From: an uncultured archaeon
GTDB lineage: Archaea > Asgardarchaeota > Lokiarchaeia > Sigyniarchaeales > Promethearchaeaceae
Assembly (NCBI GenBank): GCA_964426185.1
Contig: CAYRPF010000028.1
Span: forward strand, 1 to 32,000
DNA: 32,000 nucleotides
Direction of reading: 5' to 3'
The position numbers were made by a program, and so were the translations under genes. This document shows, in pieces, positions 21,717 to 31,708 of this stretch (position 1 is its first letter; the number at the start of each line of letters is the position of its first letter). The notes under the pieces are model-generated. The model was not told where the DNA came from, made no database searches, and was given only the letters and a program-made list of their open reading frames with translations.

Positions 21717-21836
21717 AAAATCTCTAAGAGATTAAAGGAAACGCACCCAAATTAATTTAATCGATTTGGAAGCATTAAAAATGAAGCATTTATTCGGAAT
21801 ATCAAATTATAAAAATTTTTGACACCTTTAGTTCAT

Positions 21837-23828
21837 ATGGGAAAATCGATAGACTATGCCGCAGTCGGGCTTAAATGTGGGATTGAAATCCACCAACAAT
21901 TGAATTCTGCCACTAAACTCTTTTGTGCTTGCCCAAATCAACTACAAGGCACCCGAGATCCAGATTTCAGAATTTTAAGAAAACAAAGACCAGTTTTAGG
22001 GGAAGAAGGGAAATTTGACGAAGGTATGCTGTCTGAATTTTTGAAAGGTGGTTCAGTCATTTACGAAGGATATTATGATTGCACCTGCACTTACGAACTT
22101 GATGAAACTCCTCCGTTTGCATGCGATGAAGAATGCATTGATATTGCACTGGAGATTTGTGCGCTTTTTAAAATGGATATCGTCAGAGAAATGCATGTAT
22201 GTCGAAAAAATTATGTAGATGGAAGTGTGCCGGCTGGGTTCCAGAGAACCATGGAAATCGGCCAAAATGGCAGATTAACCTTAAAAAACGGGGAAGAAAT
22301 CGGAATTGAAAATATATTTTTAGAAGAAGATGCCGCCCGTCGAATAAAAACTGAAGGAAAAATCTCATATTTTCGAGTTGATCGATTAGGAATTCCTTTG
22401 GTCGAAATAACTACTACTCCAGACATCCATGATCCAGAAGATGCACGAGAAACGGCCTATCGCATTGGTTTATTATTGCGTTCCACAAACAAAGTCAAAA
22501 ATATAATTGGTTCCACTCGTCAAGATATAAATGTCTCGATTGCAGGAGGAAAACGTATAGAAATTAAGGGTGTCCAGAAATTAGATTGGATACCGTTATT
22601 AATCCAGAATGAAGTTCTCCGACAGCAGAAACTGATTGAAATTAAGGACAAATTGAAGCAAAAATCATTCTCAGCCACAGATATCAAGAACAAACCCGTG
22701 GATTTAACCAATGTTTTTCAAAAAACCAATTGCAAATTTGTTAAAGCAGGGATAAAACGAAAAGAAAAATTAATAGGTTTGAAAATTCCTGGTTTTAAAG
22801 GCATATTTGGAACGGAAGTCCTACCAAATCGTCGATTCGGAACAGAAGTTGCCGATAAAGTAAAAGTAATTACTGGTTTAAAGGGTCTTATTCATTCAGA
22901 CGAACCATTAATTGAGAAATATCAGTTTTCTGAAGAAGAAATAGAACAAGCTAATCAAAAATTGGAAATTAATGAGGGAGATCTATTTATCTTATTACTC
23001 GCAAAAGGAAAAGCTTTAGAAACCGCCCTTAATGTGATTATTGAACGTTGTAAACAAGCATACATCGGTGTTCCTGAAGAGACTAGGCAAGCCCAAGAAG
23101 ATGGTATTCATGTTTTTCTGAGGGAATTGGGAGGCGAAAAAAGGTTATATCCAGATACAGATACTCCTCCAATAATCCTTTCTGAAAATCGTATCAATGC
23201 CTTTGAAGATAAGTTACCTCTTTATCCATGGGATGTCATTAAGATTTACTCTAAAAAATATCAGCTCGAAGAATTTCTCATTGAAGATTTAATAATGACG
23301 GGTAAACTTCCGCTATTTGATGAGTTAATTACAAAGTATCCTGATAATCCCATGTTAATTGTCCGAGCCATAACCGATATGGTTAAAGTTTTACATCGCG
23401 AAGAAAAAGATACTAATAATTTGCACCCCAATCATTATCATCAAATATTTAAGGGTTTAAAGGAGGAAATCATTGCAAAAGAAGCTATTCAGAAAATACT
23501 ACGGGTCTGGTGTGATGAGCCTAATTTACCTTTAACTCGAGCGAAAGCTAAAGCGGGAGTTCAATCGGTAAATGAGTCAAAATTAGACGAAATTATTACA
23601 GATCTCGTTAGGAAAAATCAAGATCTTATCAAATCACGAGGACGGGGAGCAGTGGGGCCATTAATGGGTGATTTAATGAAGATTGTGGGTAGAGGGTCGA
23701 TAGATGGGAAAATTTTATCATCCAAATTAAGCCAAGCAATCAGTAAAATCCTCCCAAATTCTCAAACAACTCCAAAGAAGAAAAAGGAAAAAAAAAATAC
23801 TACAAAATCAAAGAAGGTGAAAAACTAA
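21837..23828 (+). CDS. gatE: Glu-tRNA(Gln) amidotransferase subunit E (paralog 2)
   Basis: GLKCGIEIHQQL, KLFCACP, DGSVPAGFQRT, LEEDAAR, DRLGIPLVEI, RQDINVSI, RIEIKGVQ, RLYPDTD, YqeY-like GPLMGDLM. ATG at 21837 preferred over TTG at 21819. Confidence 0.95.
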   Translation: MGKSIDYAAVGLKCGIEIHQQLNSATKLFCACPNQLQGTRDPDFRILRKQRPVLGEEGKFDEGMLSEFLKGGSVIYEGYYDCTCTYELDETPPFACDEECIDIALEICALFKMDIVREMHVCRKNYVDGSVPAGFQRTMEIGQNGRLTLKNGEEIGIENIFLEEDAARRIKTEGKISYFRVDRLGIPLVEITTTPDIHDPEDARETAYRIGLLLRSTNKVKNIIGSTRQDINVSIAGGKRIEIKGVQKLDWIPLLIQNEVLRQQKLIEIKDKLKQKSFSATDIKNKPVDLTNVFQKTNCKFVKAGIKRKEKLIGLKIPGFKGIFGTEVLPNRRFGTEVADKVKVITGLKGLIHSDEPLIEKYQFSEEEIEQANQKLEINEGDLFILLLAKGKALETALNVIIERCKQAYIGVPEETRQAQEDGIHVFLRELGGEKRLYPDTDTPPIILSENRINAFEDKLPLYPWDVIKIYSKKYQLEEFLIEDLIMTGKLPLFDELITKYPDNPMLIVRAITDMVKVLHREEKDTNNLHPNHYHQIFKGLKEEIIAKEAIQKILRVWCDEPNLPLTRAKAKAGVQSVNESKLDEIITDLVRKNQDLIKSRGRGAVGPLMGDLMKIVGRGSIDGKILSSKLSQAISKILPNSQTTPKKKKEKKNTTKSKKVKN

Positions 23829-23829
23829 G

Positions 23830-25218
23830 ATGACTAGCCAAACTCAAGAATTTTACAGTGGTTATAAGCCTCAAACCATTAAAATTATGCAAAAATTTGA
23901 TGTAAAGATTTGGGATCGAATTGAAATTACCACCTCCAAAGGAAAAGCCCAAGGTGTGGTTCTTCCCCGCAATAAATTTGCCCCCGATGGTTTTATTGAA
24001 ATAAAACTCAAAAATGGATACAATATTGGTATTCCTGTGGATGAATCTTCTAATATCAAAGTATTGGGAACTGTGCCTCCGATGAAAGTATCATTTGAAC
24101 AAAAAACTCTTCCACACAACAAAAAACTTCCCACAGTAAAATTAATTGGGACGGGAGGGACAATCGCTTCCCGCTTGGATTATACTACAGGTGCGGTAAT
24201 TCCCGCATTTGAACCAGGAGAATTATTTACTGCAGTGCCAGAATTAGCTGAGATCAGTAATATAGAGACTGAGGTGGTATTTCAACTTCTTTCGGAGAAT
24301 TTATCCCCCCAGAACTGGCTTGAATTGGCAAAAAAAATTGTTTCTATAGCGAAATCGGAAATTGATGGAATCATAATTGCTCATGGAACCGATACTTTAA
24401 GTTTCACGGCCGCAGCTTTATCCTTTTTGTTAAAAAATGTTTCTATTCCAATTGTACTGGTTGGATCCCAGCGCTCAAGCGATCGACCTTCTTCAGATGC
24501 TGCCTTAAACTTGATTAATGCCGTAAAAGTTGCTAGTGAAGCCAATTTAGGAGAAGTCGTTGTCTGTATGTTGGGTTCATCAGCGCATGATTACGGTTTT
24601 ATTCACCGGGGTACCAGAGTTCGTAAGATGCATTCATCCGCGCGCCACACTTTTCGATCGATTGGAGCATCTCCTCTGGGGATGGTACGAAATCAGATAA
24701 TTACCTATTTTAGTCCTGATTATAATCCCAGAAATAAGAATAATCTCAGTAAAATGGATTTTTGGCCGAAAATTGAAGATAAAGTGGCTTTAATTTATTC
24801 ACATCCTGGTATGCAAAGCGATGTTTTAGATTTTTATATCAATAACGGATATAAGGGCATTGTTTTTGCTGGTTCAGGATTAGGACATTTACCAAAAACG
24901 ATGTTTCCTGCTTTGAAGCGGGCGCAGCAAGCTGAAATTCCCGTTCTAATGACTGTCCAAACTATTTGGGGTTATACTGGAATGGATGTGTATGAAAGTG
25001 GTCGAGAATTACTGGAATTGGGGGTAATTCCCGGAAAAAATATGTTACCTGAGGTGGCTTTTGCTAAAATGTGCTGGGCTTTGGGAAATTTCGAAGGATA
25101 CAATAAGGTTAAAGAAATCTTAACCACCAACATTGCGGGAGAAATCACTCTGGGAGAACCGATGAATGGATTTATGGTGCTACAAGGGGTAGAAGATAAG
25201 ATACTACCCTTAAAATAA
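23830..25218 (+). CDS. gatD: Glu-tRNA(Gln) amidotransferase subunit D (paralog 2)
   Basis: GVVLPR...KNGYNIGI, GTGGTIASRLDYTTGAV, HGTDTL, GSQRSSDRPSSD, RVRKMHSS. Starts 1 nt after the gatE2 stop. Confidence 0.95.
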   Translation: MTSQTQEFYSGYKPQTIKIMQKFDVKIWDRIEITTSKGKAQGVVLPRNKFAPDGFIEIKLKNGYNIGIPVDESSNIKVLGTVPPMKVSFEQKTLPHNKKLPTVKLIGTGGTIASRLDYTTGAVIPAFEPGELFTAVPELAEISNIETEVVFQLLSENLSPQNWLELAKKIVSIAKSEIDGIIIAHGTDTLSFTAAALSFLLKNVSIPIVLVGSQRSSDRPSSDAALNLINAVKVASEANLGEVVVCMLGSSAHDYGFIHRGTRVRKMHSSARHTFRSIGASPLGMVRNQIITYFSPDYNPRNKNNLSKMDFWPKIEDKVALIYSHPGMQSDVLDFYINNGYKGIVFAGSGLGHLPKTMFPALKRAQQAEIPVLMTVQTIWGYTGMDVYESGRELLELGVIPGKNMLPEVAFAKMCWALGNFEGYNKVKEILTTNIAGEITLGEPMNGFMVLQGVEDKILPLK

Positions 25219-25316
25219 CTTTTTTTTATTTATTTCACCCTATTACTTCATCCTCATTAGCAATTAGAATAAATCAGAAAAAAGAGTGAGAAGCAGGAAA
25301 AGTGGGAAAAAATGGA

Positions 25317-26615
25317 TTAAGGGGTATTTCGATTCATTACCCTGGGATATGCAATAGTATCTCGAATATGATCTAATTTTCCCACCCAGCGAAGTAGTCT
25401 TTCGATTCCTAAACCAAAACCTGAATGAGGTACGCTTCCGTACCGGCGTAAATCTAAATACCATTGATAATCTTCGATATCTGAGCCGTCTCGCTTAAGA
25501 TTAAAGATAATATTGTCAATGTCATCCTCGCGCTGACTGGATCCAATAATTTCACCATAACCTTCAGGTGCTAATAAATCGTTGCATTCCGCGTATTTCC
25601 CATCCAAAGTTTTCATATAAAATGCTTTAATATCTCGAGGAAAATGAGTTATATGAATTGGGGCTGTAAGATCCTCGGTTAAGGCACGTTCGTGATGGGT
25701 TCCAAAATCTTCACCCCACTCGATAGGCACACCCTTATTTTGAATGCGTTCCACAGCTTCATCGTAGCGGATTCGGTCAAATGGTGGTTCGATTTTTAAT
25801 AATTCTTCAGGATCGCGGCCCAATTCCTTCAAATCTCGGGATACTTCCTTAGCTGCGTGATGAATCATGGAAGTAACCAATCCATCTTCCAAATTAATTA
25901 TTCCCTCCAAATCCACAAACGCAGCTTCAGCTTCCAAATGCCAGTATTCTGCCAGATGACGAGTAGTACGAGATTTTTCTGCTCGAAAACTGGGTGTCAA
26001 AGAGTAAACTTTTTGATGAGCAAAAATTAAGGATTCTAAATACAATTGAGCGGATTGAGAAAGATAAGCTGGTTTACCGAAATACTTAATTTCGAAAAGG
26101 GTGCTTCCTCCTTCACAAGAACTTCCTGTAATTATGGGAGGAAACATTTCCCAATAGCCTTGCTCTTTGAAATAAGCCCGAGCACCTTCCAATAATGCAG
26201 CTTTAACCCGAAAACTACTGGTAAGTTTTTGACTCCGGACCCAAAGATGGCGATTGTCCAAGAGAAAGGCTTCACTTTGATCCTTTGAAATCGGAAATGG
26301 TTCTGCCTGATGAATGAGTTTGTATTCTGAAATTTTTAACTCATATCCGTTTGGTGCTCGTTCATCTGGTTGAATTTTGCCACCTACCCAAAGTGAAGAT
26401 TCATACCGAATTCCACAGATATCTTCAAATTTTTCAAGTTTAAAATCTGAAGCTTTGGCAGTGCATTGTAAAATACCCGTTCCGTCTCGAATAATTATGA
26501 ATGCAATTTTCTTACTGTTCCGTTGGCGATATACCCAACCACGGACCCGGACTTCTTTTCCCGCAAATTCTGGTGATATCACTTCTTCAATACGATAGAA
26601 TTTTTTTTCTTCCAT
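25317..26615 (-). CDS. asnS: Asparaginyl-tRNA synthetase (archaeal type)
   Basis: OB-fold (VRGWV, IRDGTG), motif 2 FRAEKSRTTRHLAEYWHLEAE (AsnRS-type rather than AspRS-type), GEIIGSSQRE, motif 3 PHSGFGLGIER. Confidence 0.95.
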   Translation of the reverse strand: MEEKKFYRIEEVISPEFAGKEVRVRGWVYRQRNSKKIAFIIIRDGTGILQCTAKASDFKLEKFEDICGIRYESSLWVGGKIQPDERAPNGYELKISEYKLIHQAEPFPISKDQSEAFLLDNRHLWVRSQKLTSSFRVKAALLEGARAYFKEQGYWEMFPPIITGSSCEGGSTLFEIKYFGKPAYLSQSAQLYLESLIFAHQKVYSLTPSFRAEKSRTTRHLAEYWHLEAEAAFVDLEGIINLEDGLVTSMIHHAAKEVSRDLKELGRDPEELLKIEPPFDRIRYDEAVERIQNKGVPIEWGEDFGTHHERALTEDLTAPIHITHFPRDIKAFYMKTLDGKYAECNDLLAPEGYGEIIGSSQREDDIDNIIFNLKRDGSDIEDYQWYLDLRRYGSVPHSGFGLGIERLLRWVGKLDHIRDTIAYPRVMNRNTP

Positions 26616-26945: not shown

Positions 26946-27209
26946 TTATATCTTTTTAACCAATTTCATGGTTTTACCACATTTTTCACAGCGGTAATCT
27001 TCTTCAGAAAGTTCTCGTTTGCGGAGTGTCCGTTGATAACCGCATTTTGTTGTGCATTTTAGGTAAAATTTTCTGCGTATTCCTGCAGTTGTTTTTTTTT
27101 TTATGGATATTTTACTTGACTTTTTAGTGGACTTTTTGCTTTTTTTATCTTCAGGCTGTGTTTTAGATTTTACTTTAACACCAAATTTATCCAAGCTCAT
27201 GATTATCAC
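26946..27209 (-). CDS. Small basic Zn-ribbon protein
   Basis: Lys-rich N-terminus, then CTTKC...CEKCG. Confidence 0.75.
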   Translation of the reverse strand: MIIMSLDKFGVKVKSKTQPEDKKSKKSTKKSSKISIKKKTTAGIRRKFYLKCTTKCGYQRTLRKRELSEEDYRCEKCGKTMKLVKKI

Positions 27210-27288: not shown

Positions 27289-28557
27289 TTATTTATTACT
27301 AATTGTATCTTTTGATTCTTCTTCATGTTCTTTTTCATGTTTTTTCTCATTTTTCTCCTTCTTTTTGTCATCTGTATATTTTTTGAAGAGTTTTTCTTTT
27401 ATACCTAAAATTGCAGCTAATTGTTCTTTAGATTTCTTCTCTTCCCGACTTTTTTCTCTTTCTTTTGCTTCAATGCGGGCTAATTTCTTCCGTTCTTTTT
27501 CAATTTTCTTTTCTAACGCAAGTTTTGCAGCTTCCAATGCTTTCAAAGATTGAATCTGTTTTAATTCAGCTTTGTATTCGTTTTTATCTGCTTTCCATTC
27601 TAAGCGTTCAAGCCGTTCTCTTGCTTTTTCCCGTTTTTGTTGAGCTTTTTCCAGTAATTTCTGGGCTCGGCGATCTTTGTATTCCGTCTTTTTCAATTGA
27701 TAATAGGCAATTGGTGTTTTCCGACCTTTTAGTTCTTCATGTTCTGCAATTATTTCTTCCACTTCTTTGATTGGTTTTATTTTGGCGCGTTCTTCTGCAG
27801 TAAGGTCATCCTTTTCTCTAAATTCGCTGGGTCGATATTTCATAGCTGGGGTTCCCATATACACCCAATTGGGTTCCAACTCTTGATGGAAAGAAGTGCT
27901 GGAAAGGGCACCTAGAATGGTGTTATCTCCTATAATTGTTCCTGGACTGACCACAGAGTGGGCTCCAATCAAGCAATTTTTTCCAATCTTTACTTTCTTT
28001 ATGATGAGAAGTTCAGTGGTAATTAAGGAAGTCATGATTACAGAACCTTGCCCGATAATTGTTCCAGGTCCGACTTCTAAGAATTCTGAATCCACCCATG
28101 CATCATATGTGGGTGTAGAGAATGATACTCGGTTTCCAAAGACCTTAAGAGCAAGTGAATCTGCCCAAGGAACGGGAAAATTATGGCAAATCCACAGAGT
28201 AAATTTTTTAATTACTGCGCGAAGACTCCAAAATCGATAATCGCGGTTTTTAGAAGATCTTTCAAAATATCCCTCACGTGGACGATGGAATAGGTTAATT
28301 ATTTTAAGAAAAAGCCAAGACCACCATATTGCTCCAAAAATCAATAGAAAATAGCCCAGAAAGAAAAGAAGGGGGAATATTCCCAAAAACCAAGCAAGTG
28401 AAATTTCGAAAGATGAAAGGATCTTAAAAATAATATATGTTTCGGGAAACAAAGTTAACCAAATCAATAAAACATATAGTAAAATATCCCATTTTACCAA
28501 TAAAGTATTTGTGGTAGTCGGTCCTGCTTTTAAACTGGTCGGTAGTTGATTTGACAT
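27289..28557 (-). CDS. Membrane-anchored left-handed beta-helix (hexapeptide) acyltransferase-like protein with a long charged C-terminal coiled coil
   Basis: Two TM segments, PREGYF...YRFW, hexapeptides VGPGTIIGQGSVI and VKIGKNCLIGAHSVVSPGTIIGDNTILGALS, YMGTPA, then a K/E-rich tail. Confidence 0.8.
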   Translation of the reverse strand: MSNQLPTSLKAGPTTTNTLLVKWDILLYVLLIWLTLFPETYIIFKILSSFEISLAWFLGIFPLLFFLGYFLLIFGAIWWSWLFLKIINLFHRPREGYFERSSKNRDYRFWSLRAVIKKFTLWICHNFPVPWADSLALKVFGNRVSFSTPTYDAWVDSEFLEVGPGTIIGQGSVIMTSLITTELLIIKKVKIGKNCLIGAHSVVSPGTIIGDNTILGALSSTSFHQELEPNWVYMGTPAMKYRPSEFREKDDLTAEERAKIKPIKEVEEIIAEHEELKGRKTPIAYYQLKKTEYKDRRAQKLLEKAQQKREKARERLERLEWKADKNEYKAELKQIQSLKALEAAKLALEKKIEKERKKLARIEAKEREKSREEKKSKEQLAAILGIKEKLFKKYTDDKKKEKNEKKHEKEHEEESKDTISNK

Positions 28558-28608: not shown

Positions 28609-29487
28609 TTACTTTTGCGTATTTTTCGCTTCTTTATATCGCTTTTTTCGCTGTTTATTTTGAAGCACCAGCGGTTCAAGCTCATCTGGAATTTCAAGCA
28701 TCCTTATATAACGTTTAAGCGAAATCTTTCCGACGGGTAAACCGAAATATTTGCCAAATCCCTTAACTCTCCGAAATTTCACCACTCCCGACATTGGTAA
28801 AAATTCTGTATAGGGGTCCAATTCAGTTCCAGGAGGAATTGCATTAAAAGCACCCACAACGGCATGATCTCCAATTTTCACTTTTTTTAAAGTTATGGCA
28901 CCGTATTTTCCTTCCACAAGATGGCTGCTTACTATTGCACCCTGCCCAATATATGCGTTTTCTCCCATCTCCAAAAATTCTTGGGTATAAAACTGATCTT
29001 CTAACACAGAATTTTTTCCAATTTTGTTCGCACCTACAAATGCAAAAGCCCAAGGAACCAACCAGGGATATATTGATTTAGAAACTTCCCATTTTAAGAT
29101 ACGTAAAATTAATCCACGCAAGTGATAATAATTTAGCGCCCGAACTTCAGCTCTATTTACACCAGCAGCTGCCACCAATTCCGTTTGAGGCGACCGCCAA
29201 TTACAAAATCGTATCACCCAACGGCTGAACAGGATTAAAATCATTAATCTAATAAAAAAGAAGAGTATAATAATTATGGGGGTAAAAATCCATATCGCAA
29301 TTAATCTAAGGTCTATAATAACTAACGAAAATTGAAGCAAACTTGGCAAATTTGGATATACTGAAAATTTTACATAATAATACAAACCAATTGATGGAAA
29401 AAACCAAGAATATCCCCAAATAAATAAGATAATTGGAACATACCGTTCATATTGAATTCTAACCTTAGGGACAGCGGAAGAGATCAT
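28609..29487 (-). CDS. Membrane-anchored left-handed beta-helix acyltransferase-like protein (paralog)
   Basis: Two TM segments, MGENAYIGQGAIVSSH, VKIGDHAVVGAFNAIPPGT, YFGLP. Confidence 0.8.
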   Translation of the reverse strand: MISSAVPKVRIQYERYVPIILFIWGYSWFFPSIGLYYYVKFSVYPNLPSLLQFSLVIIDLRLIAIWIFTPIIIILFFFIRLMILILFSRWVIRFCNWRSPQTELVAAAGVNRAEVRALNYYHLRGLILRILKWEVSKSIYPWLVPWAFAFVGANKIGKNSVLEDQFYTQEFLEMGENAYIGQGAIVSSHLVEGKYGAITLKKVKIGDHAVVGAFNAIPPGTELDPYTEFLPMSGVVKFRRVKGFGKYFGLPVGKISLKRYIRMLEIPDELEPLVLQNKQRKKRYKEAKNTQK

Positions 29488-29541: not shown

Positions 29542-29949
29542 TTAACCATCGGGATTTCGCTTGTTAAACAACGATTTCAATTCATCCATGATACTGCCCC
29601 GAAGACTCACCGGATTAGCTGGAGCGGCATTTGCTTGTGGTTTCGGCGCTGGAGGTGGAGGTGCTCCAGGTTTTGACCCAGAAGGTGGTGGTGGGGCTCC
29701 AAGACCTGCTGCGCCACCGCCTTGTGCAATTTTTCGTTCTAATGTACCAATTTTAGATTCAATTGAACTTATTTTTTTAGATAATCCATTAATTTGATTT
29801 GTAATTACTTGAATCTGAACATCTGTCATTTCTGGAATCTTTAAAACAATTTGCATAATCTTCTCTATCACATCCGCCAACCCTTCTACTCTTTCTTTTA
29901 AGGGTGCTTCAGAATTAGCATTCATCATCTTGAAAAATTCTTCTGCCAT
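29542..29949 (-). CDS. Coiled-coil + polyproline + C-terminal WH2/FAB-like helix protein
   Basis: Heptads ITNQINGLSKKISSIESKIGTLERKI; GAPPPPS and GAPPPPAPKP; terminal LRGSIMDELKSLFNKR. Confidence 0.75.
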   Translation of the reverse strand: MAEEFFKMMNANSEAPLKERVEGLADVIEKIMQIVLKIPEMTDVQIQVITNQINGLSKKISSIESKIGTLERKIAQGGGAAGLGAPPPPSGSKPGAPPPPAPKPQANAAPANPVSLRGSIMDELKSLFNKRNPDG

Positions 29950-30075: not shown

Positions 30076-30696
30076 TTAGAATTCGAGAAATCCAGGATCG
30101 CCTAAAATTTCTTCTATATTTGCTCGTTTTTTTGGCTTTTCTGAAGGAATATCTTGCTCTTCCCCAAATGGATTCATTTCTTGTTCATCGTAAATATTTT
30201 CTTCTAATTCCGCATCAACGATCAAACCAGCTTTCAATTGTTCCAATAGGCGTTTCTCATTTTCTTTATATTGCTTGGCGGTTTCTTTCCACCGTTCTGC
30301 ATTTTCTAAATCTTTCGGATCATTATATTTCTCAAATTCTTCCAAAGCCTTATCTGCATTAATTTGAGCATTATCTGATAGGAAAGAATATACTAAAGCC
30401 AATTCGGAATATTGTTGCTTTTCCTTCAAGATTTCTTCGCGTCTGGTTAATCTTTCATATTCTTGATCTTTATAGTAGATATCAATAAAAGAACCAAATG
30501 CATCAACGGGTTCACTGATTTCATTCTTAGGAACTACCTGCTGCTCACCGCAATGCCCGCATTCAATCAAAGCTTTGTCATCGCTATACTTCATATTCGC
30601 TTTCATGGTTTTATGTCCACATTTCGGGCAAGTAAAAATTTTAGGAACGGCTCTTACTCTTCTATAAACTACTTTTTTTCGCTTTCTTCTTCCCAT
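30076..30696 (-). CDS. elf1: Transcription elongation factor Elf1 with a ~130-aa C-terminal extension
   Basis: MGRRKRKK, FTCPKCGH, CGHCG, EPVDAFGSFID match the Elf1 signature. Confidence 0.9.
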   Translation of the reverse strand: MGRRKRKKVVYRRVRAVPKIFTCPKCGHKTMKANMKYSDDKALIECGHCGEQQVVPKNEISEPVDAFGSFIDIYYKDQEYERLTRREEILKEKQQYSELALVYSFLSDNAQINADKALEEFEKYNDPKDLENAERWKETAKQYKENEKRLLEQLKAGLIVDAELEENIYDEQEMNPFGEEQDIPSEKPKKRANIEEILGDPGFLEF

Positions 30697-30742: not shown

Positions 30743-31708
30743 TTATTTTTCTTTATCGATTTCATCCATAATTTCTTTGGCACAAGATGGGCAGTAACTA
30801 TGAGAAAAATAAACATCATTGTGTTTTGCCAAATATTCTTCTAATTGTTCCCAATAACCTTCATCTGTGCGTATTTTCTTACATTTAGAACAAATGGGTA
30901 AAATAGTTCGCAGTTCATTTATTTCCTTTTTTGCATCTTCATACTTTTTTAACAAACTTTTACGTTTGGGCGGTAAAAAATAGCGAATGAAAGAAAATTG
31001 AATGGATGTGAATTTTTCCAATTTCGATGGGAATAAATTTAAGTAGATGAATAGAAGTAATCCAAATCCTCCCCCAAAGATTAGTTTTGCATAAATTCCA
31101 TATTTTATAGATAGGTTACTGCCTGAAAATAATATGTTTATCCCTACAGGGTAGAGAATTCCATCTAAAATCATAATTATTATGAATATAATGGTAATAA
31201 CTCCCGAAAGAAGCAAATTATGTTTTTTCTTCTGGAAGAAAAGACGGAAAGTAAAAAGTAATAGCAATAATTCTCCACTAATCAAGAGATATGAATATAA
31301 AACCGATTTATAAGAAAATTCAACAATCATTTCTGAATAATCCAGATAAATAACATTAACATTAGAGGCAAAAACTCCATTTAATAAAATAAACAATAAG
31401 GAAATAAAAAGATTCAAGATGAAAATGAAATTTATTAGATTTCTGACATTTTCAGGCTCAGGATGTGTTAACACAAGGAAAATGGCGGCGAACATCAAGG
31501 CACTGTATGCAATATCGCCCCCGTTAAGTAAAAAATTCTTTGATAATTGAAGTGAATATAAGGAATTGAATATTTTAGTTAGACAAAATACTGCTCCCAG
31601 ATAAGCATAACTAAAATACAACTGATATTTCGGCTTAAATAAGGTAATGAAAAAAATGGGGAAGGCATAAATCGCAAAATGTAATAAAATTACTATGATT
31701 GAGTTCAT
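30743..31708 (-). CDS. Multi-pass membrane protein with a C-terminal Cys/His metal-binding domain
   Basis: About 7 TM segments, a short coiled coil, then LPICSKCKKIRTDEGYWEQLEEYL...FSHSYCPSC. Confidence 0.75.
   Translation of the reverse strand: MNSIIVILLHFAIYAFPIFFITLFKPKYQLYFSYAYLGAVFCLTKIFNSLYSLQLSKNFLLNGGDIAYSALMFAAIFLVLTHPEPENVRNLINFIFILNLFISLLFILLNGVFASNVNVIYLDYSEMIVEFSYKSVLYSYLLISGELLLLLFTFRLFFQKKKHNLLLSGVITIIFIIIMILDGILYPVGINILFSGSNLSIKYGIYAKLIFGGGFGLLLFIYLNLFPSKLEKFTSIQFSFIRYFLPPKRKSLLKKYEDAKKEINELRTILPICSKCKKIRTDEGYWEQLEEYLAKHNDVYFSHSYCPSCAKEIMDEIDKEK

Follow-up and report, generated by a model that had tools for sequence, protein, structure and literature searches.

A small Asgard protein with a coiled coil, a proline-rich arm and a conserved end helix as a candidate archaeal actin regulator

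Introduction

A dynamic Lokiactin cytoskeleton underlies movement and changes of cell shape in Asgard archaea. The named Asgard actin regulators comprise profilins and gelsolins only, and polyproline-using nucleation machineries in these organisms are 'yet to be discovered' (PMC9433394; PMC13716822). A gene in the window analysed here (the whole stretch of DNA studied, 32,000 nucleotides from a Promethearchaeota (Asgard, Loki-type) MAG) raises the question of whether one such regulator is encoded there: a sequence-only reading had seen in its 135-residue product a minimal VASP/WASP-like protein. The three-part build of this product, as in the eukaryotic EVH2-type actin machinery, makes it a candidate for the missing regulator class.

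Results

A gene with a modular product

An ORF of 135 amino acids at 29542-29949 on the minus strand runs from ATG to TAA (ORF list and translation), and its start codon is supported because the MAEEF N-terminus is kept in homologues. The parts of the gene and its product are as follows:

29542-29949, minus strand: complete gene, with 135 codons followed by the TAA stop at 29542-29544
29908-29946, minus strand: short acidic/aromatic N-terminal helix, residues 2-14 (AEEFFKMM...), from the AF2 helix 2-14
29815-29904, minus strand: conserved head helix, residues 16-45 (PLKERVEGLADVIEKIMQIVLKIPEMTD), from conservation within the order
29725-29814, minus strand: heptad coiled coil, residues 46-75, Ile/Leu at a and d, from sequence and AF2
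29614-29724, minus strand: Gly hinge and disordered proline-rich arm, residues 76-112, from AF2 and alignments
29683-29700, minus strand: GAPPPP tract 1, residues 84-89, from the translation
29650-29667, minus strand: GAPPPP tract 2, residues 95-100, from the translation
29557-29613, minus strand: end-helix motif PVSLRGSIMDELKSLFNKR, residues 113-131, amphipathic helix and basic cluster, from conservation, AF2 and the tail matrix described below

The AF2 model of the protein, built on a 55-sequence alignment, has a helix at residues 2-14 followed by an unbroken helix at 17-75 (pLDDT 93-98), a region without secondary structure at 76-115 (pLDDT about 57-59) and an end helix at 116-131 (pLDDT about 91). 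The hinge QGGGAAGLG occupies residues 76-84, the C-terminal helix reads SLRGSIMDELKSLFNKR in the translation, and the protein ends ...PVSLRGSIMDELKSLFNKRNPDG after the second GAPPPP. All the parts that had been noted from the letters, namely a coiled coil, a Gly-rich hinge, GAPPPP twice and a terminal helix, are present in the translation and the model.

An undescribed family found nearly throughout the phylum

Searched with the protein alone, 37 of 41 related genomes proved to carry a full-length homologue of the same layout. The sequence-only reading had proposed conservation across Asgard genomes as a check, and a family profile found members in 211 of the 251 Asgard genomes sampled across the phylum, in 55 of 63 genera and in 78 of 89 high-quality genomes, those of 1.3-1.4 Mb among them. 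Recurrence of the same layout in the relatives and across the phylum places it far beyond chance, and 29542-29949 is a real gene. Homologues bear the database name 'hypothetical protein', and no published description of the family was found. Against Pfam and NCBIfam, no model reached its cut-off for the window protein or for 55 members, the searches giving sub-threshold coiled-coil noise only. An exhaustive search of 1.84 billion cluster representatives matched just 66 clusters, all of similar size or with the module at one end; no longer fused forms were found in a 5.8-billion-protein set, where poly-Pro words crowd the candidate list, and a look-alike search of the ESM Atlas returned generic long helices only. 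The family is undescribed, pan-Asgard and nearly universal in the phylum.

Conservation is concentrated in the head and the tail, the arm between them varying in length and sequence. Within the order, E19, E29, M32 and P39 of the head are invariant and P16, K30, I38 and D43 nearly so, while the tail has twelve invariant positions (P113, S115, L116, R117, I120, M121, E123, L124, K125, F128, K130 and R131). A2 and F5 of the N-terminal helix are conserved in at least 90% of sequences within the order, and distant family members have analogous acidic-aromatic starts; in the end helix, E, L and K are conserved at 90% or more phylum-wide. Head and tail also change together between lineages. This joint change of the two conserved parts, and the high pLDDT of the end helix in a monomer model despite the disordered arm, would suit an end helix that folds back on its own head helix or coil, in autoinhibition or a helical bundle, with no external partner. 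However, phylogeny by itself would make the two parts change together, and the tail occurs without the head in a 697-residue protein and with a shortened head in GTPase forms (both described below). Folding back does not explain the tail in these other architectures, and we consider it very unlikely.

One genome (G251, L061:7001-7836) carries two family members in tandem, of 130 and 147 amino acids, abutting on the same strand; the pair is a lineage-specific duplication of the small form.

Head helix, coiled coil and arm

The heptad core of the coil is formed by I46, I49, I53, L56, I60, I63, I67, L70 and I74, with Ile or Leu at both core positions, and the AF2 helix is continuous across it (pLDDT 96-98). 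Searched against the PDB, the family profile matched trimeric coiled coils only (SadA stalks, reovirus sigma1 and P22 gp26); across this search and two more, one with a profile of the tail and one with the tail peptide, the PDB yielded nothing beyond trimeric coiled coils or noise. Judged from its heptads and these matches, the coiled coil probably oligomerises the protein, as trimers. The head helix is conserved beyond what a plain coiled coil needs and therefore presumably provides a second interaction surface.

Head and coil also gave recurrent sub-threshold matches to HSBP1, LPP, BRICK1/HSPC300 (WAVE complex) and CCDC53 (WASH complex). These matches to trimer-forming single-helix families probably reflect coiled-coil composition only.

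In alignments the arm measures about 30-70 amino acids across the family. The two polyproline tracts that the earlier reading had pointed out are present and conserved within the order, with P87 of tract 1 and P97, P98 and P100 of tract 2 each kept in at least 90% of sequences, but they are confined to part of the family: tract 2 is not kept family-wide, true polyproline is typical of the Loki-type order, the arm elsewhere is merely Pro/Ala/Ser-rich, and many members have no polyproline.

The end helix resembles the FAB motif of VASP

In human VASP, the FAB comprises residues 259-278 and the GAB residues 223-APGLAAAIAGAKLRKVS-239 (PMC10340426); the FAB sequence given in the sequence-only reading is correct by the same source. 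In order to measure the likeness, a position-specific matrix was derived from 68 distinct Asgard tails, no eukaryotic sequence being included. On this matrix, VASP FAB 259-276 scores 19.4 bits ungapped over 18 residues, a match of a length and score that would not reach significance proteome-wide, where a few chance matches are expected, and that belongs to a comparison chosen after the sequence was seen. The exact p-value per window is 1.1e-7 on a Swiss-Prot background and 1.5e-6 on a composition-matched background, and the score was reached by 2 of 200,000 shuffles of the peptide. Among 1.02 million windows from the ORFs of the genome, three reach the FAB score: the window protein itself (38.4 bits), a GTPase paralogue (28.5 bits) and a GlpA-like dehydrogenase (20.9 bits), the last an evident chance match. 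The WH2-type GAB of VASP scores -2.1 bits, and scores of 4-8 bits are obtained for the ESCRT-III MIM1 tails of this genome (DLExE(I/L)x(K/R)L(K/R)...); the likeness is therefore specific to FAB as opposed to WH2 or MIT ligands. Measured in this way, the likeness of the end helix to the VASP FAB appears non-trivial, exceeding what chance readily explains. Besides the Loki-type tail, a tail type ...LMGELKALLAARRRK occurs, and the tails of some lineages (...GGGLMGELKAALAARRRKA) are by eye still closer to FAB.

The resemblance to Ena/VASP extends to the layout of the EVH2 region, which likewise has an oligomerising coiled coil, a G/A-PPPP(P) proline-rich region and an amphipathic helix with Gly before it and a basic cluster at its end; in human VASP, the tetramerisation coil spans residues 343-380, and FAB and tetramerisation domain together suffice for filament bundling (PMC10340426). 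However, the Asgard protein has its parts permuted and possesses neither an EVH1 domain nor a WH2-type GAB, and its coil is N-terminal, with a left-handed-type heptad, Ile-rich and of trimer type by its profile matches, whereas that of VASP is a C-terminal right-handed tetramer. No EVH1/WH1, VASP_tetra or other EVH/VASP model of Pfam matched the window protein or the 55 members. Of the VASP/WASP-like character claimed earlier, the coil, the proline-rich arm and the FAB-like basic helix stand, but EVH1, GAB and the VASP tetramerisation domain are missing. Membership of the Ena/VASP or WASP families was rejected on the same absences and on the N-terminal heptad Ile-zipper.

The end helix had also been likened to a WH2 motif. 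WH2 elements (PF02205; WASP, WAVE, WIP, thymosin beta4) are likewise portable short helices that follow proline-rich stretches, and the Asgard helix core R-x-x-(I/L)-(M/L)-x-x-L fits the WH2 pattern R-x-x-L-L-x-x-I; yet the Asgard end helix is two turns longer and has no LKKT/V. PF02205 gave no match to the window protein at E<=10 and did not appear in the top 25 families by number of matches to the 55 members. An LKKT/LKKV-type motif is absent after the end helix, which runs directly into F-x-K-R, as the sequence-only reading had itself cautioned, whereas the VASP GAB carries KLRKV. With these results and the negative score of the GAB on the tail matrix, the assignment of the end helix to WH2 falls.

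A further precedent for the layout is arcadin-2 of Pyrobaculum (PDB 5LY3). Its core is followed by a linker that is neither structured nor conserved and by a conserved C-terminal helix, and this helix on its own binds in the hydrophobic groove of crenactin (Kd 31 nM; PMC5173319). Compared by description, both proteins join a core to a small conserved C-terminal helix through a variable disordered linker. They differ in that the arcadin-2 gene adjoins crenactin in the arcade cluster, whereas the target is unlinked to Lokiactin, which lies on another contig; in that arcadin-2 binding needs a Trp, whereas no Trp is conserved in the Asgard family; and in that arcadin-2 is a depolymeriser or sequesterer for which oligomerisation is not a described feature.

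The end helix might instead hook another conserved partner, the protein then being an oligomeric adaptor for that system. Candidates include an MIT-domain protein or Vps4 (ESCRT), a GTPase regulator, a roadblock/longin module, or a cytoskeletal or ribosomal surface, and we regard this alternative as somewhat unlikely. The ESCRT-III proteins of the genome share the layout, in which a helical core is followed by a flexible proline-containing linker and, at the very C-terminus, by an amphipathic helix with hydrophobic residues spaced i, i+4, i+7 and a basic end. Compared with the MIM1 pattern (D/E)xxLxxRLxxL(K/R), however, the Asgard tail has Phe for the final K/R and does not conserve the defining Arg, the protein has no Snf7 core, and the low matrix scores of the MIM1 tails likewise count against an ESCRT partner.

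Recurrence of the end helix in other proteins

The proline-rich stretch and end helix also terminate a conserved family of Arf/Gtr1-RagA-like GTPases of about 400-460 amino acids with an N-terminal helical region. The source genome encodes one such paralogue of 398 amino acids (contig C27, L053:561-1757, minus strand), which comprises the N-terminal helical region, the Arf/Gtr1-RagA-like GTPase, a shortened head helix, the proline-rich arm and the end helix, and ends ...DIMNELKALFALRK; the motif is found in this genome in these two family members only. Orthologues with the GTPase architecture occur in G004, G009, G011, G014 (two copies), G181, G196 and G223 (two copies), and the short N-terminal helix (residues 2-14) is missing from the GTPase-fused forms. 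Furthermore, the motif lies internally (...PQTLRGGMTEELKTLFSK...) in a mostly disordered protein of 697 amino acids with a C-terminal transmembrane helix, the gene for which in G011 lies on the same strand as a two-domain gelsolin gene and immediately downstream of it (locus L123:5612-8904). The same pair occurs in G013 (L122:544-5896) with an LVIVD-repeat beta-propeller gene inserted, so that the long protein is two genes downstream; the long motif-bearing proteins of the two genomes measure 666-697 amino acids. This adjacency, in one genus, is the sole link to gelsolin, and neither motif nor module was found inside the gelsolin ORFs of 26 relatives. Spread over several architectures is as expected for a short linear binding motif, and by its sequence distribution the end helix behaves like a portable motif of this kind. 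Its attachment to Arf/RagA-like GTPases would suit a partner other than actin.

The GTPase fusions also bear on the possibility that the end helix, amphipathic and polybasic at its end, targets the membrane in the manner of C-terminal helices of MinD/FtsA type, the family then being a set of peripheral-membrane oligomers. Such a role would make sense of these fusions: arm and helix of the paralogues would then correspond to the hypervariable region and anchor of Ras-superfamily GTPases. The position of the helix at the extreme C-terminus, both in the small form and at the end of small GTPases, is in keeping with this, as are neighbouring genes for membrane proteins in the Loki family and the helix measures (muH 0.38, z +2 and HeliQuest-type D 1.02 for the window protein; family medians of 0.35, +3 and 1.28), the medians falling in the 'possible lipid binder' range. 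Near-invariant R117, E123 and K125 within a tail of twelve invariant positions would nevertheless be unusual for a lipid anchor, and the basic cluster is immediately followed by net-acidic residues, with as many as eleven Asp, in 47 of 95 members. Nor does a simple lipid anchor sit well with the internal copy, since the protein that carries it is anchored by a transmembrane helix of its own. Overall, we consider membrane targeting unlikely.

Evidence bearing on actin

In the source genome, Lokiactin is encoded on contig C29; the genome also has two more genes of the actin family, one for a two-domain gelsolin and a weak profilin-like one, in agreement with the earlier supposition of an Asgard host with actin and profilin. 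Lokiactin is 86-98% identical across the order, and this conservation fits the invariance of the end helix, making it a plausible partner. Tested Loki profilins are reported not to bind polyproline (PMC8410842), which bears out a caveat already attached to the sequence-only reading.

Published proteomics of L. ossiferum allowed a closer look. In the genome carrying the L. ossiferum B35 proteins (G010), the monoisotopic mass of actin, counted from the second Met, is 42.747 kDa, compared with 42.75 in the table, and that of the Elf1 neighbour of the target is 24.013 kDa, compared with 24.01 for GNAMCCOK_02218; from gene order and these two mass matches we infer that the orthologue is GNAMCCOK_02219. 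In the whole-cell proteome, this protein is abundant, with a mean log2 of 18.47 and a rank of about 400-460 of ~3,000 detected proteins (for comparison, actin 21.69 and the co-purified Arf 19.68). In the published Lokiactin co-IP, GNAMCCOK_02219 is absent among the rows listed (log2 +10 to -1.06, with 841 further rows beyond), and profilin and five gelsolins are enriched. This negative result favours a different protein partner over the actin reading, although a co-IP of this kind could fail to retain a protein that binds the filament side weakly and transiently. Searches for an alternative partner yielded no candidate.

The Arf-GTPase that co-purified was considered as a carrier of the module and rejected, there being no profile match near its position. 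The Elf1 orthologue GNAMCCOK_02218 appears in the Lokiactin co-IP with a log2 of 1.36 (adjusted p 0.034), where it stands among many ribosomal and other likely background proteins.

Proposed mechanism

Weighing these lines of evidence, we tentatively favour, at rather less than even odds, an oligomeric protein built as hub, tether and hook, with Lokiactin as the likeliest partner of the hook. Head helix and Ile-zipper coil would oligomerise the protein, probably into trimers, and so form the hub; the disordered proline-rich arm of 30-70 residues would be a flexible tether; and the near-invariant basic amphipathic end helix would hook a very conserved partner. This hook may bind Lokiactin at the filament side or in the hydrophobic groove, as the Ena/VASP FAB and the arcadin-2 helix do with their own partners, in which case the oligomer would act as a multivalent F-actin tether or bundler; in the lineages that bear polyproline, it might also collect profilin-actin. 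Without a GAB/WH2 element, a multivalent filament tether or bundler fits better than a polymerase or nucleator. On the strength of its sequence features, we regard the small protein as a good candidate for an archaeal actin regulator.

A true proto-Ena/VASP, in which a FAB-like helix acts on Lokiactin filaments and polyproline feeds profilin-actin, would be the first known elongation or bundling factor for archaeal actin filaments, and would make the FAB-type motif older than eukaryotes, a case of homology and not convergence; we rate this stronger version as distinctly improbable. Should the partner of the end helix not be actin, the family would still provide a new pan-Asgard short linear motif and adaptor, including an Arf/Rag-like GTPase carrier.

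Genomic neighbourhood

None of the 21 loci compared across the phylum has a gene for actin, profilin, gelsolin or an ESCRT protein beside the small form, and no actin gene was found within +/-7 kb of the target; the missing linkage to ESCRT genes also counts against an ESCRT partner for the end helix. Small GTPases occur near these loci at about the background rate of the genomes. Within the Loki family, the gene order Elf1, target, two hexapeptide-repeat membrane proteins is kept in 7 of 11 loci, and Elf1 is still near the target in the sister family. The neighbours elsewhere in the phylum are lineage-specific housekeeping genes (phosphoglucomutase, molybdopterin oxidoreductase, LarA-like protein, PIG-L, glycosyltransferases). 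The target gene behaves as a stand-alone unit.

Other genes in the window were also identified. The minus-strand gene at 30076-30696 encodes an Elf1-type zinc-ribbon transcription elongation factor of 206 amino acids with an acidic coiled C-terminal extension of 130 residues, and that at 30743-31708 (minus strand) a VUPS-type (vitamin-uptake-like sensor) multi-pass membrane protein with a CxxC...CxxC zinc-ribbon-like cytoplasmic tail. On the other side of the target, 27289-28557 and 28609-29487 (both minus strand) encode paralogous membrane proteins that combine transmembrane segments at the N-terminus with a hexapeptide-repeat (left-handed beta-helix) domain. The product of 27289-28557 carries a long Lys/Glu-rich coiled C-terminal tail; the synteny of this pair with the target holds in a family-level clade. 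Next to them, 26946-27209 (minus strand) encodes a very basic protein of 87 amino acids, matched by no Pfam family, that bears a CxxxC...CxxC zinc ribbon at its C-terminus. Finally, a translation-related cluster at 21819-26615 comprises, on the plus strand, two subunits of the archaeal Glu-tRNA(Gln) amidotransferase, one GatE-like (669 aa) and the other GatD (462 aa), and, on the minus strand, a class II Asp/Asn-tRNA synthetase.
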